Origin: a virus
Reading direction: 5' to 3' (one strand)
IMG/VR virus record: IMGVR_UViG_3300037458_000312
Length of the DNA stretch: 40,483 nt
Shown here: piece after piece, positions 8,333 to 29,926 of the stretch
Layout of the letters: every line of letters begins with the position of its first letter
How positions within the stretch are numbered: the stretch's first letter is position 1
Made by a program: the position numbers and the translations under genes
Notes under the pieces: generated by a model
The model's input: only the letters and a program-made list of their open reading frames with translations
What the model was told of the DNA's origin: nothing
The model's database searches: none

Positions 8333-8442
8333 GGCAGCCACCAAGTGACCAGCGACAGCAGGACCAGGAAGGCGACGATCGCGATGCACACGTCGCCCAG
8401 GCGTTCGTGCCACACCTCTCCGTTCTCACCAAGCCGGCGCAT
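8329..8442 (-). CDS. Hypothetical single-TM micro-protein (37 aa)
   Basis: MRRLGENGEVWHERLGDVCIAIVAFLVLLSLVTWWLP; overlaps the upstream gene by 17 nt. Confidence 0.3.
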   Translation of the reverse strand: MRRLGENGEVWHERLGDVCIAIVAFLVLLSLVTWWLP

Positions 8443-8635: not shown

Positions 8636-8802
8636 TGCTGCACCTCAGCCTTGGCGTTTTCATCTTGCAATTCCGCTTCCCAGTAGTCGGCTTGATCGGC
8701 GGCATAGTCGCGGTCGAGGTCGCCACGGTCGAAACCGTCGAAACGATCATTACGGGAGAAGAAGGCTTCGGTTTCTTCGGCGAGGTGCGGGTGGTTGGTC
8801 AT
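8632..8802 (-). CDS. Acidic 56-aa protein; first gene of the leftward early operon
   Basis: Hand-translated MTNHPHLAEETEAFFSRNDRFDGFDRGDLDRDYAADQADYWEAELQDENAKAEVQQ. Its stop overlaps the next ATG. Confidence 0.45.
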   Translation of the reverse strand: MTNHPHLAEETEAFFSRNDRFDGFDRGDLDRDYAADQADYWEAELQDENAKAEVQQ

Positions 8803-8889: not shown

Positions 8890-9300
8890 TCAGGAGGACC
8901 GCGCCGTCGCTTTTTTGATCGGGAACGGGTTGGACTTGCTGGGCGTGACGGCAAGGTCGGCGGCTACCAGAGCGTGCCCAGTAGCGATCCAGGCGGCTCT
9001 GTGAGGCGCTGAGAGGGAGCGGAGGATGTCCAGTACCACCGCCTCGTCCGTAGACGCTCCTACGGGCTGCTGCGGATCTCCCAGGCCCGTCGCCAGCCAC
9101 TTGGCCGACACTTCCAGCGCCGCCGCCAGCCGCAGCAGGTTCGGGCCGCGCGTCCAGTGATTGTCGCCCGACTCGATGCTGCTGATGTTGGACTGGCCCA
9201 TCCCCGCCTTCTCAGCGAGCTTGACCTGGGTCAGCCCGAGAGCTCGCCGCTTCGCGCGCACCCGCTCACCGATCGTGCCCGGCACTGGTCTGGTAGCCAT
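8890..9300 (-). CDS. CI-like repressor (XRE-family HTH, no S24 peptidase domain seen)
   Basis: ATG 9300 within track ORF 8890..9366. IGERVRAKRRALGLTQVKLAEKAGMGQSNISSIESG. Divergent from the cro-like gene. Confidence 0.7.
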   Translation of the reverse strand: MATRPVPGTIGERVRAKRRALGLTQVKLAEKAGMGQSNISSIESGDNHWTRGPNLLRLAAALEVSAKWLATGLGDPQQPVGASTDEAVVLDILRSLSAPHRAAWIATGHALVAADLAVTPSKSNPFPIKKATARSS

Positions 9301-9325
9301 GAGCCAACCGTACCGCGCTAGGGCA

Positions 9326-9355
9326 TTGACATAGCGATATCGTTGCGGCCATAAT
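9326..9355 (+). promoter_or_regulatory. PR-like sigma70 promoter
   Basis: TTGACA-N18-CATAAT, ending 9 nt before the cro-like ATG. The spacer contains GCGATATCGTT. Confidence 0.5.
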
Positions 9356-9364
9356 CCTTCCATC

Positions 9365-9553
9365 ATGACCTACGCCCAAGCATTGAGCTTCTTCGGCGGC
9401 ACGCAAGTGCGCCTCGCTGCTGCGCTGGGGATCACGCAGCCGACGGTATCAGCATGGGGCGGCAAGGTGCCAGCGCAGTACCAGTACCAAATCGAAGTTC
9501 TCTCTGGCGGCAAACTGCTCGCCGATGCCGAGCTTCGCAAAGCCGCAGCGTGA
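9365..9553 (+). CDS. Cro/YdaS-like HTH regulator
   Basis: FFGGTQVRLAAALGITQPTVSAWGGKVPAQYQYQIEVLSGGKL. Confidence 0.65.
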   Translation: MTYAQALSFFGGTQVRLAAALGITQPTVSAWGGKVPAQYQYQIEVLSGGKLLADAELRKAAA

Positions 9554-9741
9554 CCCGCGACATCCCGGTGAAGACGTTCCTGAGCGCCGAGGAATTCGTC
9601 GCTTTCGGCGAAGTCGCCTAGGATGCCGGCCTGTCGCAGTCGGCCATGATCCGCAGCCTCATCAAGCGCGAGATCAACGCCCATGCCTTGAGGCTACTCG
9701 CCCTGCAGCGCAGCGATAGCGCCGACGCAGGCCAGGACTAG
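9550..9741 (+). pseudogene. Ribbon-helix-helix regulator gene interrupted by an in-frame TAG at 9619-9621
   Basis: GTG 9550 overlaps the cro stop (GTGA). Translation is VTRDIPVKTFLSAEEFVAFGEVA*DAGLSQSAMIRSLIKREI... The stop falls inside the RHH fold. Confidence 0.5.
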
Positions 9742-9747
9742 CCCACC

Positions 9748-10149
9748 ATGCCTTCCCGCCCGCCGCGTGCCGCACTGGCATCACGACCCGACCGGCCTTC
9801 CTCCCCCGGATCGACCCAACGCGGCGGGCTTTCTCTCCTCGAGGAGCAGTTCGCGCTGCAACTCCGCGCGCTCAAGCTGCCCGAGCCCGTGCGCGAGTTC
9901 GTGTTCGCCAAGCCGAGACGCTGGCGTGCCGACTTCGCCTGGCCCGAGCTCAAGGTGCTGGTCGAGGTCGAAGGCGGCACTTGGGTCAACGGCCGCCACA
10001 ACCGCGGCGCCGGGTTCGAGGCCGACCTCATCAAATACAACGCCGCGGCCTTGCTTGGCTATGCCGTGCTGCGCTTCAGCGGCGCCGCAGTCAAGTCGGG
10101 CGATGCAGCACGCACCACGGCACTGGCCCTCAACCGGAGGGCGGCGTGA
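9748..10149 (+). CDS. Vsr/DUF559-like PD-(D/E)XK endonuclease-fold protein
   Basis: RWRADFAWPELKVLVEVEGGTWVNGRHNRGAGFEADLIKYNAAALLGYAVLRF. Confidence 0.5.
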   Translation: MPSRPPRAALASRPDRPSSPGSTQRGGLSLLEEQFALQLRALKLPEPVREFVFAKPRRWRADFAWPELKVLVEVEGGTWVNGRHNRGAGFEADLIKYNAAALLGYAVLRFSGAAVKSGDAARTTALALNRRAA

Positions 10150-14233: not shown

Positions 14234-14580
14234 TGGAAGGCATCGCCCAGGAACTGGCCGAGCAGTGCCGGCATCCGAAGGCGTTTCCATTGGATGAGAT
14301 GAATGATCACGCTCCGCGCAGAAAGCAGAGAGTGAAAGCGGCCAACAAGCGGGCGGCCACGGACATCCGCACCGTGGCAACGATCTGTGAGGCGTTCGGG
14401 TTCGATCCGATTGAGTCGGTGATCGAAGCGCTGCAAGGAAACGAGTTGTCGATCGGCGAGAAGGTACGCACGGCGATGGGATTGGCCGAGTACATCCACC
14501 CCAAGCTGGCGCGGCAGGAGATCACCGGGGCGGAAGGCGGCCCGCTTGAACTGACGGTGAAGTGGCGCGCCGAGAAGTAG
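14233..14580 (+). CDS. Terminase small subunit (candidate)
   Basis: Lies immediately upstream of and overlapping TerL. The C-terminal ...LAEYIHPKLARQE motif resembles TerS families. Confidence 0.5.
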   Translation: MEGIAQELAEQCRHPKAFPLDEMNDHAPRRKQRVKAANKRAATDIRTVATICEAFGFDPIESVIEALQGNELSIGEKVRTAMGLAEYIHPKLARQEITGAEGGPLELTVKWRAEK

Positions 14581-15818
14581 TCATCGACTACGCACCGCGC
14601 CGGGCCTTCGTCGAGTTCCACGAGCGCCGGCAGCGGTGGGCGGTGATTGTCGCCCATCGTCGAGCCGGCAAGACTGTCGCCACTGTCAACGATCTCATCC
14701 GCCGCGCCATCCAAGACGGCAAGCAGAACGCACGCTACGCCTACATCGCCCCGCTCTTCAGCCAAGCCAAAAGCGTGGCCTGGGACTACCTGCGGCGGTA
14801 CTCGCAGCCGCTGCTGGCCAATGCCAACGAGACAGAACTGCGCGTCGATCTGATTAACGGGGCGCGTATTCGACTGTACGGGGCAGACAACCCGGACACG
14901 CTGCGGGGGATCGCCCTCGACGGCGTAGTGCTCGACGAAGTGGCCGACATGAAGCCGCGCGTATGGAGCGAGGTCATTCGCCCGGCGCTGTCGGATCGGC
15001 AGGGATGGGCGGTGTTCATCGGCACGCCCAAGGGACACAACGCCTTCTACGACATCTGGCAGCGGGCGCAGGACGATCCCGAGTGGTTCACGCTGCGGCT
15101 GAAGGCCAGCGACACGCACCTGATCGGCGAGGACGAACTGGCCAGCGCGCGGGCGCAGATGAGCGAGGATCAGTACGCGCAGGAGTGGGAGACATCGTTT
15201 GAGGCGGCGATCCAGGGCGCCTACTTTGGCAAGGAACTGCTGGAGGCCGAGCAGCAGGGCAGGATAAGTAACGTCCCGGTCGAGAAGGGCGTGCCGGTGC
15301 ATACGGCATGGGACCTCGGCATCGGCGACAGCACGGCGATATGGTTCGCGCAGCAGGTAGGAAAAGAGGTGCGGATTGTCGATTACTACGAGGCCAGCGG
15401 CGTCGGACTTGATCACTATGCCAAAGTCCTACAGGCAAAGGGTTTTGTGTGGGGCGATCACATCGTCCCGCACGATGCGTCCGTCCGCGAGTTGGGCTCG
15501 GGCAAGAGCCGCATCGAAACGCTGGCTGCTCTGGGCATTAAGGTGCGGATCGCGCCCCGGCTCGGAGTGGATGACGGCATCAATGCAGCCCGCCTGCTAC
15601 TCGCTCGATGCTGGTTCGACAAAAGCCGCACGGTTGACGGAGTGGAACTGCTGAAGCAGTACCGGCGGGCGTGGAATGAGGAGCGCAAGTGCTTCGAGCC
15701 GCGTCCATTGCACGACCATACCAGCCATGCGGCCGATGCCTTTCGCTATCTGGCGCTGGGGTTGAAGCCGGAGCGCAAGCTCGAGCCGATCAAGTACAGC
15801 AACGCGGGGATCGTTTGA
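14562..15818 (+). CDS. terL: Terminase large subunit
   Basis: Walker A VAHRRAGKT; LDEVAD (Walker B); C-terminal nuclease region with WDLGIGDSTAIWF and HDHTSHAADAFRY; GTG start. Confidence 0.85.
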   Translation: MARREVVIDYAPRRAFVEFHERRQRWAVIVAHRRAGKTVATVNDLIRRAIQDGKQNARYAYIAPLFSQAKSVAWDYLRRYSQPLLANANETELRVDLINGARIRLYGADNPDTLRGIALDGVVLDEVADMKPRVWSEVIRPALSDRQGWAVFIGTPKGHNAFYDIWQRAQDDPEWFTLRLKASDTHLIGEDELASARAQMSEDQYAQEWETSFEAAIQGAYFGKELLEAEQQGRISNVPVEKGVPVHTAWDLGIGDSTAIWFAQQVGKEVRIVDYYEASGVGLDHYAKVLQAKGFVWGDHIVPHDASVRELGSGKSRIETLAALGIKVRIAPRLGVDDGINAARLLLARCWFDKSRTVDGVELLKQYRRAWNEERKCFEPRPLHDHTSHAADAFRYLALGLKPERKLEPIKYSNAGIV

Positions 15819-15988
15819 ACATTCAAGAGTCGCGGCAGTTGATGCAGACGGTCAATGCTGCCGTCGCCATGGTGCAAGCCCTCGCTGCGCAACTGGATCG
15901 AGTAGAAGCGCGGCTGGATGAGCTAGAGCAACGGCGCGGCCCTGGCCGCCCTCCCAATAAGGTAGCCCATGAAGCTGTCCAAAGATGA
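15815..15988 (+). CDS. Small coiled-coil protein; start uncertain (TTG 15815 or ATG 15842)
   Basis: Part of track ORF 15689..15988; overlaps the portal start. Confidence 0.3.
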   Translation: MNIQESRQLMQTVNAAVAMVQALAAQLDRVEARLDELEQRRGPGRPPNKVAHEAVQR

Positions 15989-18185
15989 ATTGCTCACTGC
16001 GATAGAGCAGGAAGAGCAGTCGGCTATCAATTGGGCTGACGGCCCGCTTGCGGACCAGCGCGCGGAAGCACTGCGCCGATTCAACCGCGATCCCTATGGC
16101 AACGAGCAGGACGGGCGCTCGCAGGTAGTCACCAACGATGTGGCGGATGTGGTCGAGTCGATCATGCCCAGCCTCGCCCGCGTCTTTCTGAGCGGCGACG
16201 AGATCGGCAAATTCGAGCCCATCGACCCGAGCGATACAGGTTTCGAGGTCGAAACCGAGTGCGTCAACTGGATGTTGATGACCAAGAATCCGGGATTCGA
16301 GGTCATCTACTGCGCACTCAAGGACTCGCTATTGCTGGGCAATAGCTACATCAAGGTCTGGTGGCAAACGGATCAGCACGTCAAGGCCGAGCGGTATTCT
16401 GGGCTGTCAGACGAAGAACTGGCGATCCTAGCGCAAGACAAGGATGTGCAGATCACGGAGCATTCCGAGTCTCTGGATCAACTAGGACAGTTGCTGCACG
16501 ATCTGAAGGTGGAACGGGTGGTGCCGGATGAGTACGTTGCCATTGCTGCCGTGCCGCCGGATGAGTTGCTGGTTAGCGCCGCGCACCGGGAGGTCAGCCT
16601 AGCGAACGCCGATTTCGTCCAGCACCGCCGCACACTCAGCATTGGAGAACTGACGGCGCTGGGCTACAAGGTCGATCCGCAGATCAGTGATGACGTGGAC
16701 GACGACGATCGTCCCGAGGCCGATGCGCGGGATCGCTACGGCAGCGACCTGCTGGACGAAGAGGATGCGAGCGCGCTTGATGCCAGCCGGCGCCGGGTGA
16801 CGCTGCGCGAAACGTGGATCAGGGTCGGCGACGAGGACAACACGCAGACTTTGTGGCGCGTGTGCATCGTCGGCAAGACCATCTTGCATCAAGAAGAAGC
16901 GGACCATATCCCGATCGCCGCCTTCTGCCCGGTGTTGTATCCGCACTCGCACGTCGGCATTTCGTTCTTTAGCTTGGTGGAGGACTTGGCCGAGCTAAAG
17001 ACGACGATAATGCGGCAGTACCTGGACAACCTGTACCTGAGCAATAACGGGCGCACGGTGGTCGATATGGGAAGGGTCAATATCGACGACCTGTTGATCT
17101 CGCGTCCTGGTGGCGTGGTGCGGGTCGATGGCGACCCCGGAAGCGCACTGATGCCGCTGGTGACGCCGGACGTGGGCGGGCCGGCATTGCAGGCGCTGGA
17201 GTATCTGGAAGCGGTCAAGGAAAACCGCACCGGCATTGCTCGCGTCAACCAGGGCAGTCTCGATCCCAACGCGCTCAACCGCACGGCGACCGGCGCGAGC
17301 CTGATGATGAGTGCGGGGCAGTCGCGGCTTGAGCTCATCGCGCGTTGCCTTGCCGGCGGCATCCGCGATCTGTTCCTGCTGACTCATGCGGTCCTGCTGA
17401 AGCACAGCACCAAGCCGCTACAGATCAAGCTCCGCAACCAGTGGATTGCGGTCAATCCGCGCGAGTGGGTGCGGCGCACGGATTTCGCGCTGTCGGTGGC
17501 GCTGGGCACCGGAGCACCGGAGCAGCAACTGGCCAAGTTGCAAATGATCGGCCAGTTTATGCAGCAGGGCATGGGGCTTGGGTTGGTGACGCCGCAGAAT
17601 ATGTACGAGTGGGGGAAGGAAGTGCTGCGGGTTGCAGGTTATCGCTCGCCCGACAAGTTCCTCACTCAGCCGCAGCCGGGGCAACAGCCGCCGCAGCAGC
17701 AGAATCCGCTATTGCAAGTGGAGCAGATGAAGCAGCAATCCGAGCACGCCAAGCTCGACAAGGAACTGGCGTTCAAGGCGCAGGTGGGGCAGGCCGAAAC
17801 GCAGCAGAAGGCGGCGCTCGAGCAGCAGCGGATGCAGAACGAGATCGCCGCGCAGGCGCAGCAGGCGCAGGCGGATGCGGCGCTCGCCAAATACAAGGCA
17901 GATCTTGACGCCGAAACCACGGTTAAGACCAAACTTATCGAGATCGCCGGGCAACTGCTGGCGCAGAGTATGGCGCCCGAGCCCGAGGAGCCGGGTGGTG
18001 AGGCAGACGATGCCGAGGACATGGGCGAGGAGCAGCAGGGCAACGCTCAGATGCAGCAGATGATGCAAGCCTTGATGATGACGGTTCAGCAGTTGGCCGC
18101 CGCATCGGGCGCGCCCAAGCGCATCGTGCGCGGTCCTGATGGGCGCGCAGTGGGCGTGGAAACGGTGCAGACGGGGATGCAGTAG
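15969..18185 (+). CDS. Portal protein (P22 gp1-like, with a long Gln/Ala-rich C-terminal helical barrel)
   Basis: 738 aa; lies after TerL; C-terminal QQPPQQQNPLLQVEQMKQQ...AQAQQAQADAALAKYK coiled coil. Confidence 0.8.
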   Translation: MKLSKDELLTAIEQEEQSAINWADGPLADQRAEALRRFNRDPYGNEQDGRSQVVTNDVADVVESIMPSLARVFLSGDEIGKFEPIDPSDTGFEVETECVNWMLMTKNPGFEVIYCALKDSLLLGNSYIKVWWQTDQHVKAERYSGLSDEELAILAQDKDVQITEHSESLDQLGQLLHDLKVERVVPDEYVAIAAVPPDELLVSAAHREVSLANADFVQHRRTLSIGELTALGYKVDPQISDDVDDDDRPEADARDRYGSDLLDEEDASALDASRRRVTLRETWIRVGDEDNTQTLWRVCIVGKTILHQEEADHIPIAAFCPVLYPHSHVGISFFSLVEDLAELKTTIMRQYLDNLYLSNNGRTVVDMGRVNIDDLLISRPGGVVRVDGDPGSALMPLVTPDVGGPALQALEYLEAVKENRTGIARVNQGSLDPNALNRTATGASLMMSAGQSRLELIARCLAGGIRDLFLLTHAVLLKHSTKPLQIKLRNQWIAVNPREWVRRTDFALSVALGTGAPEQQLAKLQMIGQFMQQGMGLGLVTPQNMYEWGKEVLRVAGYRSPDKFLTQPQPGQQPPQQQNPLLQVEQMKQQSEHAKLDKELAFKAQVGQAETQQKAALEQQRMQNEIAAQAQQAQADAALAKYKADLDAETTVKTKLIEIAGQLLAQSMAPEPEEPGGEADDAEDMGEEQQGNAQMQQMMQALMMTVQQLAAASGAPKRIVRGPDGRAVGVETVQTGMQ

Positions 18186-18919: not shown

Positions 18920-19924
18920 ATGGCAGAACAGACCACCCCGGCGACGCCGGGAGTCGCAGCGAAACCGCTGAGTGTGGAACAACGGCTGGCGAACCTGTAC
19001 GGGGCACAGATGGACGCGCCCGCACCGCCCCCGCCGCAACAGCAGGATGCGCCCGAGCCGACGGAACCGGCAGAAGCAGCAGAGCAGGACGCGGACCAAG
19101 CGGAGCTATCCCCCGACGACCTACCAGACGAAGGGGAATCAGCGGCGCCGTCGCCGACTGTGGATGAGTTCGAGCTAGTTCACAACGGCACCCAGCACAA
19201 ACTGGCCCGTGACAAGGTCATCGAACTCGCGCAAAAGGGCTTTGACTACACCCAGAAGACGCAGCAGCTATCGGCGCAACAGCGCGCGATACAGGAAACG
19301 CTCCAGCGGGCTCAGGAGATCGAGCAACTGGTGCCGGACTTGGCCAACGAGGCAGCGTCACTGCGGGCAGCAGAAGCGGCATTGGCACCGTGGCAGAATG
19401 TGGATTGGGTTCGCCTCGCAACGGACGAACCGCTGGAGTACGCGCGCTATCGTGCGCAGTATGACCAGTTGGTGAGCGCATACAACCATGTGCGCGGTAC
19501 GTTGAACCAGAAGGCGCAGGCACTCCAGCAACGCAAGGTCGAGGTAGGACGGGCGATCGTGCAGCAGGAGATGGCCAAGCTCACCGAGTTTCTGCCGCAG
19601 ATGCGTGATCCCAAGAAGTTCCAAGCGGAAGCGCAGTCGATCAAGGAGTACGGGCTCGACCGGGGTTACACGGCTGAGGAACTCGAATCCGTGACCGACG
19701 CGCGGATGGTGCGGACACTTTGGGAGGCCGCGCAGTACCGCAAACTGGTGATAGGCAAGGCCGAGCGGAACAAACAATTGCGCCAAGCGCCCCCGACGAC
19801 GAAGCCGGGTGCGGTTGGAACCACTGAATCGGCAGCCGATCAGCGGACGAAGCAGATTCGCCAGAACCTGAAGAAGTCGGGTGATTGGCGGGATGCGGCG
19901 GCCTTGCTGGGGCGCCTGAAGTAA
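18920..19924 (+). CDS. Scaffolding protein
   Basis: Acidic, helical, low-complexity N-terminus; lies directly upstream of the major capsid gene. Confidence 0.65.
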   Translation: MAEQTTPATPGVAAKPLSVEQRLANLYGAQMDAPAPPPPQQQDAPEPTEPAEAAEQDADQAELSPDDLPDEGESAAPSPTVDEFELVHNGTQHKLARDKVIELAQKGFDYTQKTQQLSAQQRAIQETLQRAQEIEQLVPDLANEAASLRAAEAALAPWQNVDWVRLATDEPLEYARYRAQYDQLVSAYNHVRGTLNQKAQALQQRKVEVGRAIVQQEMAKLTEFLPQMRDPKKFQAEAQSIKEYGLDRGYTAEELESVTDARMVRTLWEAAQYRKLVIGKAERNKQLRQAPPTTKPGAVGTTESAADQRTKQIRQNLKKSGDWRDAAALLGRLK

Positions 19925-19936
19925 AAGGACAGAATC

Positions 19937-20905
19937 ATGGCGGCGACAGTTGCTGCAAGCAAAACGTATGACCTGAGCGGTGGCGCGCTCAAGGAAGATC
20001 TTGAATCGATCATCTGGGACATCTCGCCCCAAGACACTTGGTTCATGAATTCGGTGGATCGCGTAACGGCGAAGTCCACGCTGCACGAGTGGCTCACCGA
20101 TACGCTGGTTAGCCCGGCGCAGAACGCGAAGATCGAAGGCGATGCCTTCACTGCCGTCGCGCGCACGCTGCCGGCGCGGCTGAAGAGCTACACCCAGATC
20201 TCGCGCAAGGAGTTCGAGGTCACGGGCACGGCGCAGAAGGTGGACAACGCGGGCATGAAGGAACTGCTTGGCTATCACACCGCGCGCGCCGGCAAGGAAC
20301 TGAAGCGGGACATCGAAGTATCGTTGCTGGGCGCGTATGTGTCGACGGCGGGATCGTCGGTTCTTGCGCGCACGACGTCTGGTGCCGAGAACTGGTGCTA
20401 TACCGACAACCACATCAAGCTGACCAACCAATCGGCATCGACCACGGTCGCACCGTCGAGCGGGCTGGCGGGCGCGGTGACGGCTGGAACTGCGACTGCG
20501 GTTACGGAAACCAACCTCAAGAGCGGCCTGCAACAAGCTTGGTCTTGCGGTGGTGACGTGACCACGATTTGTGTCGGCCCGGCGCTGTACAACACGATCA
20601 GCGGCTTTACCGGTCTCGCCACTCGCTTCCGAGACGTCGGCAGCCGCTCGCAAGCGCAGATCATCGGTGCGGCTGATGTGTATGTGTCGGCGTTTGGCAG
20701 TCACACGATCCGGCTGTCGCGGTATTGCTCTTCGTCAACGATTCTCGGCCTGGATATGACCGCGTGGGCGTTCGCCACGCTTCGTCCGTTCCAGACGATC
20801 GACATTGCGAAGATTGGCGATGCCGAGCGCCGGATGCTGCTCGCGGAGTACGCGCTGGTCTGCAAGACGCCGACGGCGAACTTCAAGATCACCGGCGCGT
20901 CGTAA
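19937..20905 (+). CDS. Major capsid protein (HK97 fold family)
   Basis: 322 aa. KSTLHEWLTDTL motif near the N-terminus; position after the scaffold gene; followed by a terminator. Confidence 0.8.
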   Translation: MAATVAASKTYDLSGGALKEDLESIIWDISPQDTWFMNSVDRVTAKSTLHEWLTDTLVSPAQNAKIEGDAFTAVARTLPARLKSYTQISRKEFEVTGTAQKVDNAGMKELLGYHTARAGKELKRDIEVSLLGAYVSTAGSSVLARTTSGAENWCYTDNHIKLTNQSASTTVAPSSGLAGAVTAGTATAVTETNLKSGLQQAWSCGGDVTTICVGPALYNTISGFTGLATRFRDVGSRSQAQIIGAADVYVSAFGSHTIRLSRYCSSSTILGLDMTAWAFATLRPFQTIDIAKIGDAERRMLLAEYALVCKTPTANFKITGAS

Positions 20906-20933
20906 AGCGTCTGAGTACGCTACCTTGGGCGGG

Positions 20934-20959
20934 CGGGGAGCAATCCTCGCCCGTTTTTT
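20934..20959 (+). terminator. Intrinsic terminator/attenuator after the capsid gene
   Basis: CGGGGAG-CAATC-CTC(g)CCCG stem with one bulge, followed by TTTTTT. Confidence 0.55.
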
Positions 20960-20960
20960 G

Positions 20961-21296
20961 ATGAGACGACTGATCGACCGCAATCCGGTAACCGGGGAGA
21001 CGGTCTGGTACGAGTTCAACCATGCGGACGAATCGGCGACGATTACGCATGAGCAGGATGTGCAGTTGCTGCTGGATCGCAATCGTGCGTCGGCAGCGGA
21101 CGATGACAAGACGAAGCGCGGGATAAAGAACGATTGGTGGAAGTACGCCAGCGTTCCGAACGTGGTGCAGGTTGAGTGGCGGCAGAAGTACGGTGTCGAC
21201 ATGTTCAATCGAGACCACCAGAAGGCGGTATTCAAGCTGCTGAACAGTCCCGACTACGCCTTTCTCAAGACGACGACCAAGCATCATGGCGGATGA
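20961..21296 (+). CDS. Hypothetical protein (111 aa)
   Basis: Internal ATG of track ORF 20805..21296, right after the terminator T tract. Confidence 0.5.
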   Translation: MRRLIDRNPVTGETVWYEFNHADESATITHEQDVQLLLDRNRASAADDDKTKRGIKNDWWKYASVPNVVQVEWRQKYGVDMFNRDHQKAVFKLLNSPDYAFLKTTTKHHGG

Positions 21297-22683
21297 CCTG
21301 ATCAGGGCCGCCCGTGCGGCGTGGGATCGCAACGAGTGGGGAAGTGTCTGGAAGTTCAGCAACGCAGAGCTAAACGAGCATCCAGATCGCCCGGAAGCGT
21401 TGTATCTGGCCGGGTGCGCGTTGCGGGCGCAAGGTCATGTGGCATTGGCTGCGACGGTCTACCGGAGGGCGCTGGCGCTTAACAGCACGCACCTCAACCT
21501 GTGGATGCACTACGCCGCCTGTCTGCATGACCTGCACCAGTGGGATGAAGCGCGTGAAGCGTTCCAGATGTGCGCCAAGCGCATCCCGGACGATCCGGCG
21601 CCTATGGCGAACATTGCCAGCGGTTATGTGCAGCAGGGCCGCCCGCGCGAGGCGCTGGAGTGGGCGCAGAAGGCGTTGGCACTGGACCCGGATCACTACA
21701 TCGCCCGCGTGTCGCGGTGCTTTGGCAACTTGGGCCTGGGGCGGTGGAAGGACGGCTGGATCGATGCCGAGTGGCTATACGGGCATCAGGTGCCCATCCG
21801 GGTGTATCGGGACAAGGACAACGAAGAGCCGGCGTGGAATGGGGAGCCTGGGCAGACAGTAGTGGTGCAAATGGATCAGGGGCTGGGCGACCAGATCATG
21901 TTCGCGCAGTGCCTGCCGCAGCTTATTGCCGACAGCAAGCAGGTCATCATCGAGTGTGCGCCGCGTATGGCGAACCTATGCCGGCGCAATTGGCCGCAGG
22001 CGATCGTGCAGCCGACACTGAAGACGCTCGACTTGGAGTGGCCGAAATACTTTGCTATCGATGCCCATGTGCATATCAGTTGGCTGGGCAAGTTCTATCG
22101 CAACCATGACGCAGACTTCCCGCGCCGGGCGTACCTCAAGCCGGATGCGGAGAAGGTGGCGAAGTGGAAGGAGTGGCTGGCGCAGTTCCCTGGCCCGACG
22201 CTGGGCTTGGCGTGGGAAGGCGGGCTGACGCACACCATGCGGGCGGCGCGTTCGTTCTCATTGGCCGAGCTGGAGCCGGTAATGCAGCACGCCGGGACGC
22301 TGATCGACCTGAGTTACCAAGACCACCACCGCGAGATTGCGCAGTGGAACATCGACCACCCGGAGCATCAGGTGGTGTGTCCGCCGCTGCCGGTGGATGA
22401 TTACGACGAGACGGTAGCGTTGGCGGCGGCATTGGATGACATCGTGACGGTGACGACGACGCTAGCGCACGTCTGCGGGGCATTGGGACGGCACGCGTAT
22501 GTGCTGGTGCCGCAGGCTCCGCAGTGGCGCTACCAGCACCCGTGCGGCGACGGGCTGTGGTGGTATCCCGAGGGCAGCGTGGAAATGTGCCGGCAGGCGA
22601 AGGGCGAGACATCCTGGGGGCCGGCAATCAACCGGCTGGCCGACAAGATGGGGCGGATTGCGGAGTTGCGCAGGGCGGCGTAG
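21286..22683 (+). CDS. TPR-repeat protein fused to a GT9-like (heptosyltransferase-fold) glycosyltransferase domain
   Basis: About 4-5 TPRs at the N-terminus. Then VVVQMDQGLGDQIMFAQCLPQL, LGLAWEGG...RSFSL, DDYDETVALAAALDDIVTVTTTLAHVCGALGRHAYVLVPQAPQWRY...WYP. This matches the widespread TPR+GT9-like architecture. Confidence 0.75.
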   Translation: MADDLIRAARAAWDRNEWGSVWKFSNAELNEHPDRPEALYLAGCALRAQGHVALAATVYRRALALNSTHLNLWMHYAACLHDLHQWDEAREAFQMCAKRIPDDPAPMANIASGYVQQGRPREALEWAQKALALDPDHYIARVSRCFGNLGLGRWKDGWIDAEWLYGHQVPIRVYRDKDNEEPAWNGEPGQTVVVQMDQGLGDQIMFAQCLPQLIADSKQVIIECAPRMANLCRRNWPQAIVQPTLKTLDLEWPKYFAIDAHVHISWLGKFYRNHDADFPRRAYLKPDAEKVAKWKEWLAQFPGPTLGLAWEGGLTHTMRAARSFSLAELEPVMQHAGTLIDLSYQDHHREIAQWNIDHPEHQVVCPPLPVDDYDETVALAAALDDIVTVTTTLAHVCGALGRHAYVLVPQAPQWRYQHPCGDGLWWYPEGSVEMCRQAKGETSWGPAINRLADKMGRIAELRRAA

Positions 22684-23456
22684 TGGCGACGTTTGCCCGT
22701 CGGTATGGCACATTGTGCCGGCGCTACGATTGGCGCGAGTTTCGGAGATTTGGACCCAAAAGCCAATTGGGCGATTGGGTCTTGCAGTATCAGGTCATGG
22801 ACTGCGGCCCGTATCCGGTGGTCTTTGGCATGCCGCCGTTGTTGAGCAACGGTTTTGTAGCGCAACAAAAGAAGTTCCTTTACTGCGACCACGCATACTT
22901 CGAGCGCGGATGGGACAACTTCAACTTTCGCCTGGTGCGGGATCACATTCATCTGACGACGTTGCTGGATCGCCCCGATGATCGGCTGAAGCGATGGAAG
23001 GTGCAGATCGATCCGTGGCGCAAGACAGGCCGCAGCATCGTGGTGATCCCTCCCGGTTTCTACCATACCGAGATTTTCGGTCTGGGCAAGGATTGGGCGC
23101 GGCGCATGGTGGAAAACTTGGGGCGTTGGACTGATCGCCCAGTAGTGGTGAAGTCAAGCAAAGGGCGGTTGCGCGAATTCCTGTTGGAAGAGGTGGGCGC
23201 CTTTGCCGTGGTCTGCTGCTCAAGCGTGGCTGGTATGGAAGCGGCGCTGATGGGCGTTCCCGTGTTCAGTACACCGCACTGCTGCTCATGGCCGATCAAT
23301 GCGGGCGAGGTTAAAAACATCGAGCGCCCGGAGTACCGGGAGCGACATGCCTGGGCGTGCGGGCTGGCTTATGCCAGTTGGAACGCGGAAGAGTTGGAAA
23401 CTATTGATTTTCGCGATTACTACTACAGCGTGAAGGAGCAACCTTGCGCGTCGTAA
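22683..23456 (+). CDS. Possible GT-B-like glycosyltransferase (KpsS/KpsC-like C-terminal Rossmann pattern); start uncertain
   Basis: GTG 22683 overlaps the TAG of the upstream gene. RSIVVIPPG...PVVVKSSKG...FAVVCCSSVAGMEAALMGVPVF. Confidence 0.4.
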   Translation: MATFARRYGTLCRRYDWREFRRFGPKSQLGDWVLQYQVMDCGPYPVVFGMPPLLSNGFVAQQKKFLYCDHAYFERGWDNFNFRLVRDHIHLTTLLDRPDDRLKRWKVQIDPWRKTGRSIVVIPPGFYHTEIFGLGKDWARRMVENLGRWTDRPVVVKSSKGRLREFLLEEVGAFAVVCCSSVAGMEAALMGVPVFSTPHCCSWPINAGEVKNIERPEYRERHAWACGLAYASWNAEELETIDFRDYYYSVKEQPCAS

Positions 23457-24154
23457 CAACCTGCCACAAGGCGGGGTGGGAGCAGTACGGTCAGCAGTGC
23501 CTGGACGGACTGAAGAAGTGGCCGGCAGAGGCCGAGTTCTGGTGGTACTCGGAAGGGTTCGATCTGCCGGCGCAGAAGAAGGTGCGCGAGATCAAGAACG
23601 AGCGCATGGAGCGGTTGCAGGAGTTCAAGCAACGCTATCGGCATTATCGGGCGCCCGATTGGCGGTTCGACGTGGTGCGGTTCAGCAACAAGGCATTTGC
23701 GCTGTACGACGCGCTGCGCGATCACGACGGGTTCGGCGTATGGATGGACGCGGACATCGTGACGCACAAGCGGATGCCGAAAGACTACCTGCGCAGCCTG
23801 CTGCCGAGCGATTGTTACATCGGTTTGTTCCAGCGCGACGGGATGCACAGCGAAACCGGGCTAATGTTGTTCAACTGCGCCCATCCTGCGCATACGTCGT
23901 TCATGGACACGTACATTGATTGGTACGAGTCGGGCAAGTTCAAGGGCGCGCATGAGTGGCACGACTGCATCGTGATGGACGCGGTGCTGCGGGCGTTCGA
24001 GCGTAACAGTCTGGTGAAGTCGCACAACCTGTCTGGCAAGGCGAGCGGCGTTTCGCACCCGATGGCGGTGCATGATTTTGCGCAGTACGCTGATCATTTG
24101 AAAGGCCAGAGCAGGAAGGCGCTTGGGCACTCGCCCGAGAGGAAGGCGGCATGA
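23444..24154 (+). CDS. GT-A-fold glycosyltransferase (DxD)
   Basis: TTG start 6 nt after AAGGAG; FGVWMDADIV (DxD); nucleotide-diphospho-sugar transferase-like pattern. Confidence 0.55.
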   Translation: MRVVTTCHKAGWEQYGQQCLDGLKKWPAEAEFWWYSEGFDLPAQKKVREIKNERMERLQEFKQRYRHYRAPDWRFDVVRFSNKAFALYDALRDHDGFGVWMDADIVTHKRMPKDYLRSLLPSDCYIGLFQRDGMHSETGLMLFNCAHPAHTSFMDTYIDWYESGKFKGAHEWHDCIVMDAVLRAFERNSLVKSHNLSGKASGVSHPMAVHDFAQYADHLKGQSRKALGHSPERKAA

Positions 24155-24681
24155 GGTATAGCCAACTGATCGCGGCGTGCTACCGGGCGCAACCGGCGGC
24201 GATCTTGGAGATCGGGACGTGGAACGGAGAGCGGGCGCAGCAGATGCTCCAGGTGGCGCCGGGTGCGGTGTATTACGGGTTTGATCTGTTCGAGGATGCT
24301 ACCGAGCAGACGGATGCCGAAGAAATGAACGTAAAGCGGCACGACGTGCTGGCAGAAGTGGAAGTCAGGTTGCGCGGTTATCGCGCGCACCTGACGAAAG
24401 GCAATACACGGCACACGCTCGCGGACTTCTATCATCCGGTGGATTTTGTGTGGATGGACGGCGGGCATAGCGTGGAAACCATCGCCAGCGACTTTGCCAA
24501 TGTGCGTCGATTGGCAATGCCGGATGCGGAGATCTATCTGGACGACTACTACACCGGGCCGATTGATACGGACAAGTTCGGCTGCAACAGGCTGGTGGCC
24601 GGATTGCGGCATGACGTGTTGCCGGTGACCGATCCAGTGAGCGGAGGAGGGTTCGTGCAGATGGTGCGGGTGTGGCTATGA
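24151..24681 (+). CDS. Class I SAM-dependent methyltransferase
   Basis: AILEIGTWNGERA (motif I), YYGFDLFED, FVWMDGGHS; ATGA coupling. Confidence 0.7.
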   Translation: MRYSQLIAACYRAQPAAILEIGTWNGERAQQMLQVAPGAVYYGFDLFEDATEQTDAEEMNVKRHDVLAEVEVRLRGYRAHLTKGNTRHTLADFYHPVDFVWMDGGHSVETIASDFANVRRLAMPDAEIYLDDYYTGPIDTDKFGCNRLVAGLRHDVLPVTDPVSGGGFVQMVRVWL

Positions 24682-25607
24682 GCATCACGCAGAGAATCGA
24701 CGCAGTAACCCGAATCGGCGAGAAGTATCTGGGCACCGTCCTGCCGGCGCCGCGCAGCGTCAAGATCGAACTGACGGCGAATTGCAACTATCGCTGCCGG
24801 TTCTGCGTGAAGTCGCTGCGCCCAGACGATGGGGAGATGTCGCGGGCGTTCTACTCGCGCATCATCCGCGAGATGCGCGCTGACGGGGTGGAAGAACTAG
24901 GCGTGTTCTACATCGGCGAATCGTTCACCTGCAAGTGGTTGCCGGAAGCGATAGCCGAGGCGAAGATGATCGGCTACCCGTATGTGTTCTTGACCACCAA
25001 CGGGGCGGCGAGTCATCCCGACAAGGTCAAGGCGTGCATGGAAGCTGGGCTGGATAGCCTCAAGTTCAGCATCAACTTCTACGACAAGGAGCAGTTTGCC
25101 GACGTGGCGCAGGTCAAGCCACGGCTGTATGACACGGCGATCAGCAACCTGAAGGCGGCGCGGGAGCGGCGGGCGCTGGGGCAGTACCGCACCAAGATTT
25201 ATGCGTCGTCCATTGCGTTCGATGGCGAGCAGGGCACCAAGATGCAGGGCGTCGTCGATGAGATCCGGCCCTTTGTCGATGAGTTCTACTGGCTGCCGTT
25301 GTACGGCATGGGCGGTGCGGCGAAGGAGGCGGGCTGGAAGCCGCAGCCCGGCAATCCTGGGCGGTTGGCGGCGATGCGCGATCCGCTGCCCTGCTGGAGT
25401 GTGTTCACGGAGGGGCACATTACCAAGGACGGGCTGATGTCCGCGTGCTGCTTTGGGCATGGAGTGGACGATGACATGGTAATGGCGGATCTCAACCAAG
25501 TGTCGTTTATGGATGGCTGGAATTCGGCCAAGTATCAGGCATTGCGGGCTGCGCATCTGGCGAAGGATGTCACCGGCACGCCTTGCGAAACGTGTGCAGC
25601 AGCATGA
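24678..25607 (+). CDS. Radical SAM enzyme with a Cys-rich SPASM/twitch-like C-terminus
   Basis: ELTANCNYRCRFCV (CxxxCxxC); C-terminal PCWSVFTEGHITKDGLMSACCFGHG...PCETC; ATG 24678 forms ATGA with the MTase stop. Confidence 0.75.
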   Translation: MSITQRIDAVTRIGEKYLGTVLPAPRSVKIELTANCNYRCRFCVKSLRPDDGEMSRAFYSRIIREMRADGVEELGVFYIGESFTCKWLPEAIAEAKMIGYPYVFLTTNGAASHPDKVKACMEAGLDSLKFSINFYDKEQFADVAQVKPRLYDTAISNLKAARERRALGQYRTKIYASSIAFDGEQGTKMQGVVDEIRPFVDEFYWLPLYGMGGAAKEAGWKPQPGNPGRLAAMRDPLPCWSVFTEGHITKDGLMSACCFGHGVDDDMVMADLNQVSFMDGWNSAKYQALRAAHLAKDVTGTPCETCAAA

Positions 25608-26314
25608 TCCCTATCTACCTTGGTTACGATCCGCGCGAGGCGGCGGCGTATCACGTTGCCTGTCAGAGCATTCTCGAGCGGGCGAGCGAGCCGGTGTGTT
25701 TTGTGCCGTTGGCGTTGAGCCTGCTGCGTGAGTACGACAACAGCGGAAAGGATGGCAGCAACCACTTCATCTACAGCCGGTTCCTGGTGCCGTATCTCGA
25801 GCGGTGGGGCGCGCAGCACAAGCACGCGATATACATGGATTCGGACGTGCTGTTGCGCACCGACATTGCCGAGCTATGGGCCCTGCGCAAGCACGATGTA
25901 GGCGTGCAGGTAGTCAAGCACGATTACAAGACGACGCACGCGCGGAAGTATCTGGGCACGCCGCTGGAAAGCGATAACGAGAATTACCCCTGCAAGAATT
26001 GGAGCAGCGTCATGTTGTGGAATTGCGGATTCATGGAAAACCGCAAGCTCACGCCTGATTTCGTTGCCGGTGCGACGGGCTCATTCCTGCATCGGTTCGA
26101 GTGGTTGTCGCCTAGCCGACTTGGCAGCCTGCCGATAGAGTTTAACTGGTTGGTGCGCGAGTATCCCAAGAACGATTCTGCCAAGTTGCTGCACCACACG
26201 TTGGGCTCGCCGTGCCTGGGTGGCGAGCATTGGGATCAAGAGGGCGGCCATGAGTGGCGCCGCACGCTCAAGAATGCGCTGGCGCCGATGGGCGGGCCGG
26301 CTGCGATGGGATAA
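25604..26314 (+). CDS. GT8-like glycosyltransferase
   Basis: ATG 25604 forms ATGA with the radical SAM stop; FIYSRFLVPYL, IYMDSDVLL (DxD), NWSSVMLWN. Confidence 0.6.
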   Translation: MIPIYLGYDPREAAAYHVACQSILERASEPVCFVPLALSLLREYDNSGKDGSNHFIYSRFLVPYLERWGAQHKHAIYMDSDVLLRTDIAELWALRKHDVGVQVVKHDYKTTHARKYLGTPLESDNENYPCKNWSSVMLWNCGFMENRKLTPDFVAGATGSFLHRFEWLSPSRLGSLPIEFNWLVREYPKNDSAKLLHHTLGSPCLGGEHWDQEGGHEWRRTLKNALAPMGGPAAMG

Positions 26315-26317
26315 CAC

Positions 26318-26917
26318 ATGGCGCTTGCGAACTACACGGACCTGAAGGCGGCGGTAGCGGCGTGGCTCGCCCGTAGTGACCTCACATCGCAAATCCCCGA
26401 CTTCGTCACGCTGTGCGAGGCGAAGCTGAATCGTCTGCTGCGTTGCCGGCAGATGGAGCAGCGGAGCACGGCGACGGCTACGGAATTTATGGAGTTGCCG
26501 ACGGGGTTTCTCGAGCTTCGCAATATCCAGCTAAACGAAACGCCCAAGGTGCCGTTGTCGCTGATGGCTCCAGAGTACGGTGATCTCGTCTACAGCGGAG
26601 CGACCGGAAATCCGCTGTACTACGCGATCCTCGCCAATCAGTTGCAGTTGATCCCGGCGCCGGATGGAACGTACACGGTGGAGGTTGATTATTACGAAGT
26701 GATCCCGCCGATGGCGAGCAATGCGACCAACTGGCTGCTGACGGCGGCGCCTGACATTTACCTGTACGGGTCGCTGCTCGAGGCGTCGGGTTATTTGCAG
26801 GATGACCCGCGGGTGCCCGCGTGGAATGCGGCGTATACGCAGGTATTGCAGCAATTGCAGTCCGCTGATCGGCGGGCTAAGTGGAGTGGCTCGCAGATGG
26901 TAGTGCGGCCGGCTTAG
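26318..26917 (+). CDS. Head-tail adaptor / head-completion protein (candidate)
   Basis: YTDLKAAVAAWLARSDLTSQIPDFVTLCEAKLNRLLR pattern typical of podovirus connector-region proteins; first gene after the cassette. Confidence 0.45.
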   Translation: MALANYTDLKAAVAAWLARSDLTSQIPDFVTLCEAKLNRLLRCRQMEQRSTATATEFMELPTGFLELRNIQLNETPKVPLSLMAPEYGDLVYSGATGNPLYYAILANQLQLIPAPDGTYTVEVDYYEVIPPMASNATNWLLTAAPDIYLYGSLLEASGYLQDDPRVPAWNAAYTQVLQQLQSADRRAKWSGSQMVVRPA

Positions 26918-28645: not shown

Positions 28646-29926
28646 ATGGCGCGCACGCGGCAACCGCAGGGGGCGGCGGCGCTCAGTAGATACTTTGCGG
28701 AAAACGCATCGGTCGTTTATTGCCCGTCACTTGGTGCGCGCAATCTGGTCAATGGCAAGGCTCTTACGGTTGGCTCGACGCCGCCGACGCTGACGCCAAC
28801 AAAGGATGGTCTTGGGTCCAAGTGGGACACCAGCACACATTTGTCGCATGTCGTGTTGGGGAATGCCAATGAGCTTTACTCATCAACATCGGCGACATTG
28901 TTGTTGCTGCGTAACTTTTGGGGGATTGCATCTGAATCCGCTGAGTTTGGTTTCAATGTCTCCACGAGTGAGCGGTTTTTATGTCACGCGCCGTGGTCGG
29001 ATGGAAACTTGTATTTCGATCCGAGCAACGCTTCCACAAATCGCGTTACGGTTTCCGGGCAAACGTGGACAGCAGGAAAAACGGATGCGCTGGCGTTTGG
29101 ATCCTCGACCACCGGGCGCGGCACTGAGGTATGGCGTGACGGCAAGTTGATTGGATCGGGGGCGGCTACCACGCTAGACATGGAGGCGCAGCCCTTTTAC
29201 TTTGGGGGAATGCCTAAGGGTTCTGAAGTTGAAATTAATCTAAACCCAACTCAATCAAGCGGTCTGCTGATTGCGCTGTTCCCGCGCGAGTTGCCGCAAG
29301 AGCTAATCAGAGACTGGAGCGCGAACCCGTGGGGCGTCACATTCGCCCCGCAGCGCCGCCTCTGGATTCAGCTTGGCGCGGCGGCGGGGGGCGGGGTTGA
29401 TGCCGATGTCGCTGGTACGCAGGCGACAGATGTTGGTGCAATAGCCGTAGAGGCCACTACCGGCGCAGCATTAGCAGGAACACAAGCGACAGATGTTGGC
29501 GCCATAACAGTTGAAGCAACAACGGGCGCTGCCATCGCTGGCACGCAGGCGGGTGATGTTGGAGCAATAACAGCAGAGGCCACTACCGGAGCGGACATTG
29601 CTGGCGTACAGGCCAGCGATAGGGCTGCGGTAGAAGTCACTGCCAGCACGGGCGAAACAGAAGCGGTTATTGCTGGGGCGCAGGCGAGCGATGTTGGCGC
29701 TGTCGATGTAGAGGCTACGCTTGGTCTGTCCATTGCGGGCACGCAAGCAAGCGATCTTGGTTACATCGTTGTTGAGGCAACATTGCCGGCCACAATGGCC
29801 GGAACGCAAATGAGTGACGTTGCAGCTATCGCGGTGCTAGGAACGAGCATTTGGACCGATGTCGGCGTAAGTGCGGCGACGTGGACGGATGTGGGCGGGG
29901 CATCCTCTATTTGGACGGACGTGTAA
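28646..29926 (+). CDS. Tail fiber/decoration-like protein: LamG/ConA-like N-terminal domain plus seven 21-aa tandem repeats plus 3x WTDVG
   Basis: The N-terminal ~240 aa fit a Laminin_G_3-like pattern (…WTAGKTDALAFGSS…EVWRDGKLIG). Repeats are seen directly in the translation. Confidence 0.55.
   Translation: MARTRQPQGAAALSRYFAENASVVYCPSLGARNLVNGKALTVGSTPPTLTPTKDGLGSKWDTSTHLSHVVLGNANELYSSTSATLLLLRNFWGIASESAEFGFNVSTSERFLCHAPWSDGNLYFDPSNASTNRVTVSGQTWTAGKTDALAFGSSTTGRGTEVWRDGKLIGSGAATTLDMEAQPFYFGGMPKGSEVEINLNPTQSSGLLIALFPRELPQELIRDWSANPWGVTFAPQRRLWIQLGAAAGGGVDADVAGTQATDVGAIAVEATTGAALAGTQATDVGAITVEATTGAAIAGTQAGDVGAITAEATTGADIAGVQASDRAAVEVTASTGETEAVIAGAQASDVGAVDVEATLGLSIAGTQASDLGYIVVEATLPATMAGTQMSDVAAIAVLGTSIWTDVGVSAATWTDVGGASSIWTDV
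29411..29848 (+). repeat. In-frame imperfect tandem repeat, about 63 bp x 7 (AGTQA[ST]DVGAI.VEATTGA.I)
   Basis: Read from the translation and DNA; units diverge at synonymous sites. Confidence 0.85.

Follow-up and report, generated by a model that had tools for sequence, protein, structure and literature searches.

A glycosyltransferase-led gene cassette in the head module of an SU10-like podovirus: a candidate virion-glycosylation system

What might six consecutive enzyme genes, several of them predicted glycosyltransferases, be building in the middle of a phage head module, and onto what would their product be placed? The question is raised by the IMG/VR virus record IMGVR_UViG_3300037458_000312, a stretch of 40,483 nucleotides (the whole of which we call the window), where six plus-strand open reading frames (ORFs), here c1 to c6, occupy positions 21286-26314 between the major capsid gene with its terminator and a small conserved ORF (orfX) on one side and the head–tail adaptor gene on the other. 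An initial annotation, made from the letters of the DNA, had proposed that these genes form a cytoplasmic cassette for glycosylating the virion. What stands of that proposal is a soluble, multi-enzyme glycan cassette headed by a fusion of tetratricopeptide repeats (TPR) and a GT-B transferase domain; a virion protein is its candidate acceptor. We conclude that the six genes very probably encode a glycan-building pathway. As to its purpose, the explanation we tentatively place first is a late-expressed cytoplasmic module that glycosylates a structural protein of the phage, either ahead of head assembly or in its course, and we infer that the acceptor would most likely be the major capsid protein or else some other virion protein exposed at the surface.

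Enzymes of the cassette and the slot that holds them

The six genes lie on the same strand and are translationally coupled throughout, and the families of both flanking genes match those expected of a capsid and an adaptor. A TAG/GTG overlap joins c1 to c2 (22681-22685); c2 runs into c3 through AAGGAG (23433-23438), five nucleotides and a TTG start at 23444 that overlaps the c2 stop (23454-23456); and ATGA overlaps at 24151, 24678 and 25604 form the c3/c4, c4/c5 and c5/c6 junctions. The c6 stop (26312-26314) is followed by a 3-nt spacer and then by the adaptor ATG at 26318. Gene order, strand and all five coupling signals thus agree with the initial annotation, as does the absence of transmembrane segments: no hydrophobic segment above the typical transmembrane threshold was found in any of the six proteins. 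They likewise gave no Pfam match related to the Gtr-type modules of O-antigen conversion (GtrA flippase, GtrB bactoprenol glycosyltransferase, GtrC), from which the cassette had rightly been set apart, and neither a flippase nor a polymerase was found among them. PADLOC defence models returned only a generic radical S-adenosylmethionine (SAM) core similarity of c5 to pVip (2e-9, N-terminal core), and the other proteins had no match.

The lead enzyme, c1 (21286..22683, plus strand, 465 aa), combines an N-terminal TPR region with a C-terminal GT-B domain of GT9-like fold. Pfam places the repeats at residues ~30-140 (about four TPR pairs), and an AlphaFold (AF2) model built from 40 homologues, with a mean predicted local distance difference test score (pLDDT) of 92.4, has a TPR superhelix at residues 2-166 followed by two Rossmann-like lobes, i.e., the GT-B arrangement. 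When the full model was compared with the PDB by Foldseek, the best matches were SPINDLY, XcOGT and other bacterial OGTs, and human OGT (1e-10 to 1e-8; top E = 1.7e-10), at template-modelling scores (TM-scores) of only 0.3-0.4 that are partly driven by the TPR half. Among BFVD viral models, c1 matches over its full length TPR proteins of cyanophage S-SRM01 and of uncultured phages (query TM-score, TMq, 0.70-0.73), and its catalytic half is matched by stand-alone "GT family 9" proteins from phages (E = 3.4e-10; target TM-score, TMt, 0.71) together with proteins from phages annotated as RfaF and, lower in the list, as Aah/TibC. The TPR fusion is kept across the more than 215 homologues of c1 that were found.

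In sequence the link to GT9 is fainter. The C-terminal domain reaches only E = 0.054 against Pfam GT9 (PF01075; 13.2 bits vs a cut-off of 22), and its family profile finds WaaF (1psw) in the PDB at a sub-threshold E = 0.14, with both GT9 signature regions aligned, an N-lobe "QGxGDxIM" and a C-lobe "VTVTTTxAHVCGALG"; the PDB sequence search was made with the C-domain alone, full-length queries being dominated by TPR matches. No GT41 Pfam family was detected in c1 at E <= 0.01, nor in a scan of the C-domain at E <= 10. Because the GT9 sequence scores are sub-threshold, we call c1 a TPR + GT-B protein with a GT9-like fold and not a GT9 member, its modelled catalytic domain appearing closer to GT9 than to GT41 on the basis of fold only. 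The GT9-like label of the initial annotation therefore holds for the structure and fails the Pfam family model.

Two groups of characterized enzymes bear comparison with c1. FlmG binds its flagellin acceptor through a TPR half and transfers the sugar with a GT-B half, in the cytoplasm (PMC7591256). Like FlmG of Caulobacter and the GT41 enzymes OGT and SPINDLY, which are soluble and O-glycosylate Ser/Thr, c1 has N-terminal TPRs and a C-terminal GT-B domain, and the earlier view that such an architecture is typical of protein O-glycosyltransferases is borne out by SPINDLY and OGT as top structural matches and by the similar layout of FlmG. It differs from FlmG, with which it was compared by architecture, in having about four TPR pairs vs 313 residues of TPR, and from GT41 in its low TM-scores, its lack of a GT41 Pfam signal and a catalytic domain nearer to GT9. 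With the GT9 heptosyltransferases (the Aah/TibC BAHT family and WaaC/WaaF) it shares the GT-B fold and the "QGxGD" and "TTTxAHxxGAxG" motifs that align with WaaF, but its sequence similarity is sub-significant and a TPR fusion is not a GT9 feature.

Two further proteins are predicted GT-A transferases. For c3 (23444..24154, plus strand, 236 aa), the AF2 model (pLDDT 95.2) has a GT-A fold whose Foldseek matches in the PDB are BoGT6a (1.3e-8), LARGE1, alpha-1,3-GalT, LgtC, GlyE and XXYLT1 (1e-8 to 1e-6, TM ~0.5), and the motif D102-x-D104 is invariant among 37 sequences. On its model the protein belongs with the GT-A retaining transferases of the GT6/GT8 clan; it has no Pfam family and no PDB sequence match, profile search included, and no CAZy family can be assigned. 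The last gene product, c6 (25604..26314, plus strand, 236 aa; phrog_28018, 7.6e-32), is GT8-like: it scores one bit under the Pfam GT8 cut-off (PF01501, 5.6e-5; 23.3 bits vs 24.3), its family profile matches the GT8 domain of WbbM (2.1e-5) and GlyE (3.8e-3) in the PDB, and both aspartates of its DxD motif, D79-S-D81, are invariant, all of which identifies it by sequence as a putative GT-A retaining-type transferase. GlyE, a GT8 enzyme whose role is to lengthen a glycan already linked to protein, is among the relatives of c3 and c6 alike.

Between them lie c4 and c5, and c2 precedes them. The product of c4 (24151..24681, plus strand) is a class I SAM methyltransferase of the Methyltransf_24 family (PF13578, 1.4e-12; 48.8 bits vs a cut-off of 26.3) and probably an O-methyltransferase, weak profile matches to cation-dependent O-methyltransferases being the sole pointer to O-methylation of a sugar. 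The product of c5 (24678..25607, plus strand) is a radical SAM enzyme with one predicted auxiliary cluster site of the Twitch/SPASM type. That of c2 (22683..23456, plus strand) is an accessory protein with a large family of relatives (1096 at E <= 1e-3) and with no Pfam match and no PDB sequence match, whether searched singly or as a profile. It gives weak matches to DUF6716 ("putative glycosyltransferase"), and its domain type is often C-terminal in proteins with an N-terminal GT4-type Glycos_transf_1 domain; it is probably a glycosyltransferase-like or sugar-nucleotide-binding module. The gene identities first proposed thus hold for c1 (TPR/GT9-like), c3 (GT-A with DxD), c4, c5 and c6 (GT8-like), and c2 stays a putative GT-B-like protein.

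Contigs from IMG/VR, ENA and GenBank that carry relatives of c1 or c5 (numbered with the prefix L) were compared gene by gene, the c1 relatives being retrieved with an alignment-based query, as a single c1 sequence retrieved none. In more than 25 of them the order is capsid, orfX, c1, c2 where present, c3, variable genes, c6 and adaptor, with capsid proteins 35-74% identical to that of the window, and the order capsid, orfX, c1, variable genes, c6, adaptor recurs in MW202512.1. The arrangement is conserved far beyond chance, and the initial proposal to survey whether the cassette keeps to the capsid gene in related phages is thereby answered: the capsid gene is always its neighbour. The core consists of c1, c6 and, in most, c3; c2 (carried by only ~8 of 25 cassettes), c4 (in about half) and c5 come and go.

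What fills the variable positions is telling. Relatives hold there a GDP-mannose 4,6-dehydratase (GDP_Man_Dehyd, 2.8e-102; L008, L028, L031), a DegT/DnrJ/EryC1 aminotransferase (3.1e-61; L012, L019, L025, L028, L031), methyltransferases of the FkbM, Methyltransf_11 and Methyltransf_23 types, a further nucleotide-sugar transferase (L020) and a weakly GT29-like protein (L033). Since they include both nucleoside diphosphate (NDP)-sugar genes and methyltransferases, the locus is expected to build a diversified glycan; judged by its genes, it is clearly a diversifying glycan locus with a fixed putative initiating enzyme, one that would make as well as tailor activated sugars. The initial statement that no nucleotide-sugar synthase is present accordingly holds for the window and not for the locus at large. 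Within some cassettes HNH homing-endonuclease genes also occur (L015, 11454-12992; L012, 12139-12603; L018, 11628-12113).

The slot itself is an insertion hot spot. In Sinorhizobium phage phiM5 (L035), which has no cassette, the orfX homologue (gp15) stands directly before the adaptor gene, from which we take the ancestral order to be capsid, orfX, adaptor. After the capsid gene and before orfX, phiM5 carries at 7021-8707 a tRNA-Met, a gene for a 91-aa virion protein and one for an SGNH hydrolase, the last of which was detected in the particle proteome. As this cargo is unrelated to the cassette, the capsid–adaptor interval would be a general cargo slot in the lineage. In the Manatee Spring phages MW202711 and MW202496, orfX is followed by just one "putative glycosyltransferase". 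Weak evidence of host comes from the labels of metagenome-assembled genome (MAG) bins in which cassette contigs occur, namely Rhodocyclaceae, Rubrivivax and Planctomycetota, with L039 and L040 pointing to Rhodocyclaceae or Rubrivivax-like hosts.

Candidate acceptors: virion or host envelope

We read the cassette as a protein-glycosylation system because it combines a TPR + GT-B fusion, GT-A extenders with a methyltransferase, optional NDP-sugar genes and soluble proteins encoded in a head operon. In such a system the TPR half of c1 would bind the acceptor protein and c1 would attach the first sugar to Ser/Thr, possibly a heptose taken from ADP-heptose of the host; c3, c6 and probably c2 would lengthen the chain with host NDP-sugars; c4 would O-methylate a sugar; and c5 would work with c6 in a radical, oxygen-independent modification. 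The variable glycan coat so formed might alter the virion surface, e.g., through masking, stability, adhesion, or avoidance of re-adsorption or recognition. A virion protein is favoured as acceptor by the tight coupling of the genes between orfX and the adaptor, the conserved synteny, the missing export machinery and the precedent of the mycobacteriophages.

That precedent, as related in PMC11600133 from Freeman et al. (2023), consists of operons in Che8 and Corndog/cluster O whose O-methyltransferase and three glycosyltransferases modify capsid and tail-tube proteins. The present cassette resembles them in being phage-encoded, in pairing tandem glycosyltransferases with an O-methyltransferase and in its gene content varying between phages; the mycobacteriophage enzymes, by the same account, act in the cytoplasm. 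Virus-encoded capsid glycosylation is therefore a known kind of system, and the initial claim that a multi-enzyme, methylated or radical-modified glycan on the virion of a proteobacterial podovirus would be new was, on what this source relates, overstated. The likeness is one of gene content and position alone, and the hosts (Actinobacteria vs probably Proteobacteria), the virion types (siphovirus vs SU10-like podovirus) and the fixed position of the cassette between capsid and adaptor genes all differ. What sets the cassette apart is its SU10-like podovirus lineage, a TPR-GT9-like enzyme in the lead, tailoring genes that are swapped within a fixed slot, and the recruited radical SAM enzyme, and our literature searches found no description of this cassette. 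We know of no TPR-GT9-like initiator, radical SAM gene, or GDP-mannose dehydratase or aminotransferase module in the mycobacteriophage operons. A more distant parallel is chlorovirus PBCV-1, which uses its own cytoplasmic glycosyltransferases and a sugar methyltransferase (its A064R unites two glycosyltransferase domains and a methyltransferase domain) to place an unusual methylated glycan on its major capsid protein; other giant viruses also glycosylate their capsids. Virus-encoded glycosyltransferases and a methyltransferase are common to PBCV-1 and the cassette, but in PBCV-1, a giant virus of eukaryotes, the glycans are atypical and N-linked, the enzymes belong to unrelated lineages, and no radical SAM enzyme is known to take part.

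The strongest competitor moves the product from the virion to the host: the enzymes would remodel lipid A-core or lipopolysaccharide (LPS) at the cytoplasmic face, or attach sugars to a surface protein of the host, flagellin or pilin for instance, altering the receptor landscape late in infection with, e.g., superinfection exclusion or less re-adsorption of progeny to debris as the gain. We regard this as unlikely. Soluble GT9 and GT8 transferases are the standard kit for the LPS inner and outer core (waa clusters); the structural matches of the c1 catalytic domain include RfaF- and GT9-annotated phage proteins, its best sequence match to a real enzyme is WaaF, and the best solved relative of c6, WbbM, is an O-antigen enzyme. 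Yet lipid-linked core assembly has no known use for the TPR fusion that more than 215 homologues keep, and the cassette has no membrane-associated or lipid-carrier enzymes. The slot acts as a moron or cargo hot spot whose content changes fast, and c6 has homologues at sites away from the capsid gene in many unrelated phages; the strict capsid–adaptor location over deep divergence would nevertheless be left unexplained. Timing and life style also tell against the host envelope, since the cassette stands in a late head operon, where new LPS would barely be surface-exposed before lysis, and no integrase was found among the ten largest early ORFs scanned.

Several points weigh against a virion acceptor all the same. 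GT9-like, GT8-like and GT4-like soluble enzymes fit LPS-core assembly equally well, and because LPS-core enzymes are soluble GT9 and GT8 proteins too, the missing transmembrane segments are compatible with a host-envelope target as well. Position by itself counts for little, the slot being an insertion hot spot, and GT9 membership of c1 lacks statistical support from its sequence. The Ser/Thr/Ala-rich loop of the capsid protein (residues ~163-192), which the initial annotation had put forward as a cassette target, has the same length and Ser/Thr content in the cassette-less phiM5 and in other relatives; as it is not specific to cassette carriers, we rejected it as acceptor evidence. A "TT(T/P)APVSG" motif is conserved among close cassette carriers, which could be phylogenetic inertia. 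The closest relatives of c5 are bacterial genes that sit beside narG, nrdD, ubiU and fnr-type genes in no glycan context, so a place for c5 in the glycan pathway is a conjecture that draws only on its repeated adjacency to c6. Finally, the clade, made up of uncultured relatives from metagenomes, is known here from its genes.

If virions of this group are indeed glycosylated, phage capsid glycosylation would reach beyond the actinobacteriophages into a large podovirus group that is common in the environment and probably has Gram-negative hosts, and the locus would be a viral counterpart of the O-antigen locus, i.e., one of fixed position with a conserved initiator and a swappable tailoring set. 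This would have implications for phage surface chemistry, recognition by immune systems and predators, adsorption and stability, and the TPR-GT9-like enzyme would represent a new class of protein glycosyltransferase of use in glyco-engineering.

The radical SAM enzyme and its GT8-like neighbour

The assignment of c5 draws on Pfam Radical_SAM (PF04055, 1.6e-12; 48.4 bits vs a cut-off of 29.5), with C36-x3-C40-x2-C43 invariant in 15 sequences, and on Pfam SPASM (PF13186, 8.9e-9; 36 bits vs 21.5) and the twitch model NF033640 (1e-8). Only five C-terminal cysteines are invariant (C239, C257, C258, C303 and C306), as against the seven cysteines and two clusters of a full SPASM motif, and they fit a single predicted auxiliary cluster that is Twitch-like rather than full SPASM. 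In the PDB, the second-best match by sequence is BtrN (2.8e-4), with only the N-terminal radical SAM core aligned, and peptide maturases such as PqqE and SkfB are matched weakly.

The nearest relatives of c5 are bacterial. A scan of GTDB species genomes found 348 of them at 53-74% identity, those in genuine chromosomal contexts including the complete genome CP019169.1 (L049), a 3.46 Mb Ferrovibrio contig (L098) and many Usitatibacter/Burkholderiales MAGs, and the bacterial enzyme (~315 aa; L049, L098, L046, L047 and ~60 other loci) is 55-65% conserved across Beta- and Alphaproteobacteria, Planctomycetes and others. With ORFs of the GC-rich loci called using a GC3 filter, Fnr/FtrB-type regulators adjoin the gene in 33 of 73 loci, and its other neighbours include NarK-NarK-NarG, MogA, NrdD and UbiU but no glycan genes; NrdG, NnrS-like, hemerythrin-like and cytochrome bd-like neighbours were assigned by reading sequences and not by family search. 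No NCBIfam model names this enzyme, the MoaA, NirJ, PqqE and tungsten-cofactor maturase models all scoring far below their cut-offs. The narG and mogA neighbours had suggested MoaA itself, which was rejected (38-57 bits vs cut-offs of 231-325) and whose C-terminal cysteine pattern we take to be different. The bacterial enzyme appears to be an orphan under anaerobic regulation, and the sugar tailoring that had been ascribed to c5 is not evident from these near-orthologues, which belong to anaerobic regulons and not to glycan loci.

It may be, then, that the cassette is not one pathway: the glycosyltransferases and methyltransferase would form a glycan module, and c5 would be an independent auxiliary metabolic gene that performs, in the infected cell, the same oxygen-independent reaction as its bacterial orthologue does in anaerobic conditions. 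The resemblance to hundreds of bacterial genes in anaerobic-type neighbourhoods invites this idea, as do the absence of c5 from roughly 40% of cassettes and its identity of 65-71% between contigs whose capsid proteins share 35-55%, a conservation that exceeds that of every structural gene. What tells against it is the company that c5 keeps. In phages it almost always adjoins, and overlaps, a GT8-like gene; it lies outside the capsid–adaptor slot only in L011 and in L002 and L003, and in the latter two a c5/c6-type pair stands upstream of the portal gene, so that the pair moves as a unit. In a quick neighbour-joining tree with no support values, from which captures can be counted only tentatively, the majority of phage copies group in one clade and at least five phage-type lineages fall among the bacterial sequences (L019/L028/L117, L077/L079, L086, L104 and L074), each again beside a GT8-like gene. 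The tree suggests that phages captured the bacterial enzyme repeatedly, and because the adjacency has been re-created in separate phage-type lineages within different bacterial clades, c5 and c6 are probably coupled in function. We consider an independent c5 improbable, more so than a host-envelope target.

For c5 as part of the glycan pathway, our best guess at its chemistry, made with low confidence, is that it either carries out an oxidation like that of BtrN, with no need of oxygen, or rearranges a sugar or nucleotide-sugar by radical chemistry. The BtrN analogy is suggested by the core match, the Twitch-like cysteine spacing (presumably similar to that of BtrN) and the DegT gene found beside c5 in several cassettes (L012, L028, L031), the partner of BtrN in its own pathway being the DegT-family aminotransferase BtrS. 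Both BtrN, a Twitch dehydrogenase of butirosin biosynthesis with a carbohydrate-like substrate, and c5 are small radical SAM proteins with one auxiliary-cluster domain; the alignment is confined to the N-terminal core, however, and the true orthologues of c5 are the bacterial genes of anaerobic regulons. A strict DesI/DesII-like pairing of c5 with DegT was rejected, as c5 occurs without DegT and DegT without c5. In a bolder form, the GT8-like and radical SAM enzymes would be an obligate pair that places a radical-modified sugar on a virion protein, the orphan enzyme having been captured repeatedly for that purpose; we think this doubtful. Were it true, it would give the first functional handle on a widespread orphan family of bacterial enzymes, and the hypervariable "capsid glycan locus" with its TPR-GT9 lead would stand as the hallmark of a large uncultured clade of proteobacterial podoviruses. 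The repeated recruitment of the orphan enzyme beside a GT8-like gene offers, in any case, a tractable route to its function.

Least probable of all is that the cassette glycosylates phage DNA or serves to glycosylate and methylate a small molecule or peptide akin to a cofactor or to a ribosomally synthesized and post-translationally modified peptide (RiPP): radical SAM/SPASM, glycosyltransferase and methyltransferase genes are also the enzyme set of mycofactocin-type pathways, c5 weakly matches PqqE and SkfB, and phage glycosyltransferase arrays that hypermodify DNA reportedly exist, but neither a precursor peptide nor a RiPP recognition element was found, orfX is also kept by phages that lack the cassette, no hydroxymethylase, TET or other DNA-base-modifying gene was seen among the early ORFs scanned, and the TPR-glycosyltransferase fusion and GDP-mannose dehydratase-type genes better fit a protein-linked glycan.

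Three loci show c5 or its surroundings in unusual form. A 208 kb contig of a Candidatus Intricatilinea gracilis MAG (L041) carries a c5 relative of 70% identity that falls inside the main phage clade, with no other cassette gene or capsid gene detectable near it, and may have arisen by transfer from phage to bacterium, unless the contig is chimeric. L015 has a duplicated 5' radical SAM fragment (residues 1-37), then an HNH gene and then the full-length copy, an arrangement that resembles a scar left by homing. Between the radical SAM and GT8-like genes of L006 lies a gene (8890-10047) for a 385-aa protein with a weak match to the ADP-ribosyltransferase family ART-PolyVal (5.9e-6, below the Pfam cut-off).

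Flanking head genes and the rest of the genome

Bases 1-127 of the window are a perfect direct repeat of 40357-40483, and with these identical 127-nt ends (a circular assembly overlap or a short terminal repeat) we take the window to be a complete genome, with a unit length of 40,356 bp and a G+C content of ~61%. Its late region is a structural module of the SU10/LUZ24/phiM5 podovirus type, with genes for terminase (14562-15818), portal (15969-18185), scaffold (18920-19924) and an SU10/HK97-type major capsid protein (19937..20905, plus strand; Pfam SU10_MCP, 1.8e-73; phrog_1328, 1.4e-75). Megablast of 20900-26400 against INPHARED gave no match, no near-identical phage is present there, and the closest INPHARED capsid proteins are 35-44% identical to that of the window.

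The capsid gene is followed by a hairpin resembling an intrinsic terminator (20927..20959, plus strand; 13-pair stem with U6, -28.1 kcal/mol, z = -3.17 vs shuffles), which a simple consensus scan had missed. It is probably a leaky terminator that attenuates transcription into the cassette. Given its place 3' of the capsid gene, the cassette would be read by terminator read-through, as expected for enzymes required at far lower amounts than the capsid protein. Next comes orfX (20961..21296, plus strand, 111 aa; phrog_3982, 6.4e-15), a conserved head-module protein whose stop overlaps the c1 start and which was found 3' of the capsid gene in all relatives compared. As it is homologous to phiM5 gp15 (hhalign probability 99.3%, E = 3.3e-20), it is not specific to the cassette; it is unrelated to the phiM5 virion protein gp13, and gp15 is not among the proteins flagged in that phage's particle proteome.

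The downstream boundary of the slot is the head–tail adaptor gene (26318..26917, plus strand; Pfam SU10_adaptor, 2.1e-35; phrog_2941, 1.1e-53), beyond which more virion proteins are encoded. Among the downstream structural genes, an ORF with no family match (28646-29926, 426 aa) contains four copies of a 63-nt (21-aa) repeat at 29411-29734, three of them in tandem, with units resembling AGTQA(T/S)DVGAI(A/T)VEATTGAA; its product may be a fibre or decoration protein with repeat-length polymorphism. In the early region, 2585-4533 holds a number of direct repeats that have diverged (lengths 41-101 nt, 73-91% identity, ~615 and ~1093 nt apart), a pattern that suggests paralogous small early genes or repeated regulatory elements.

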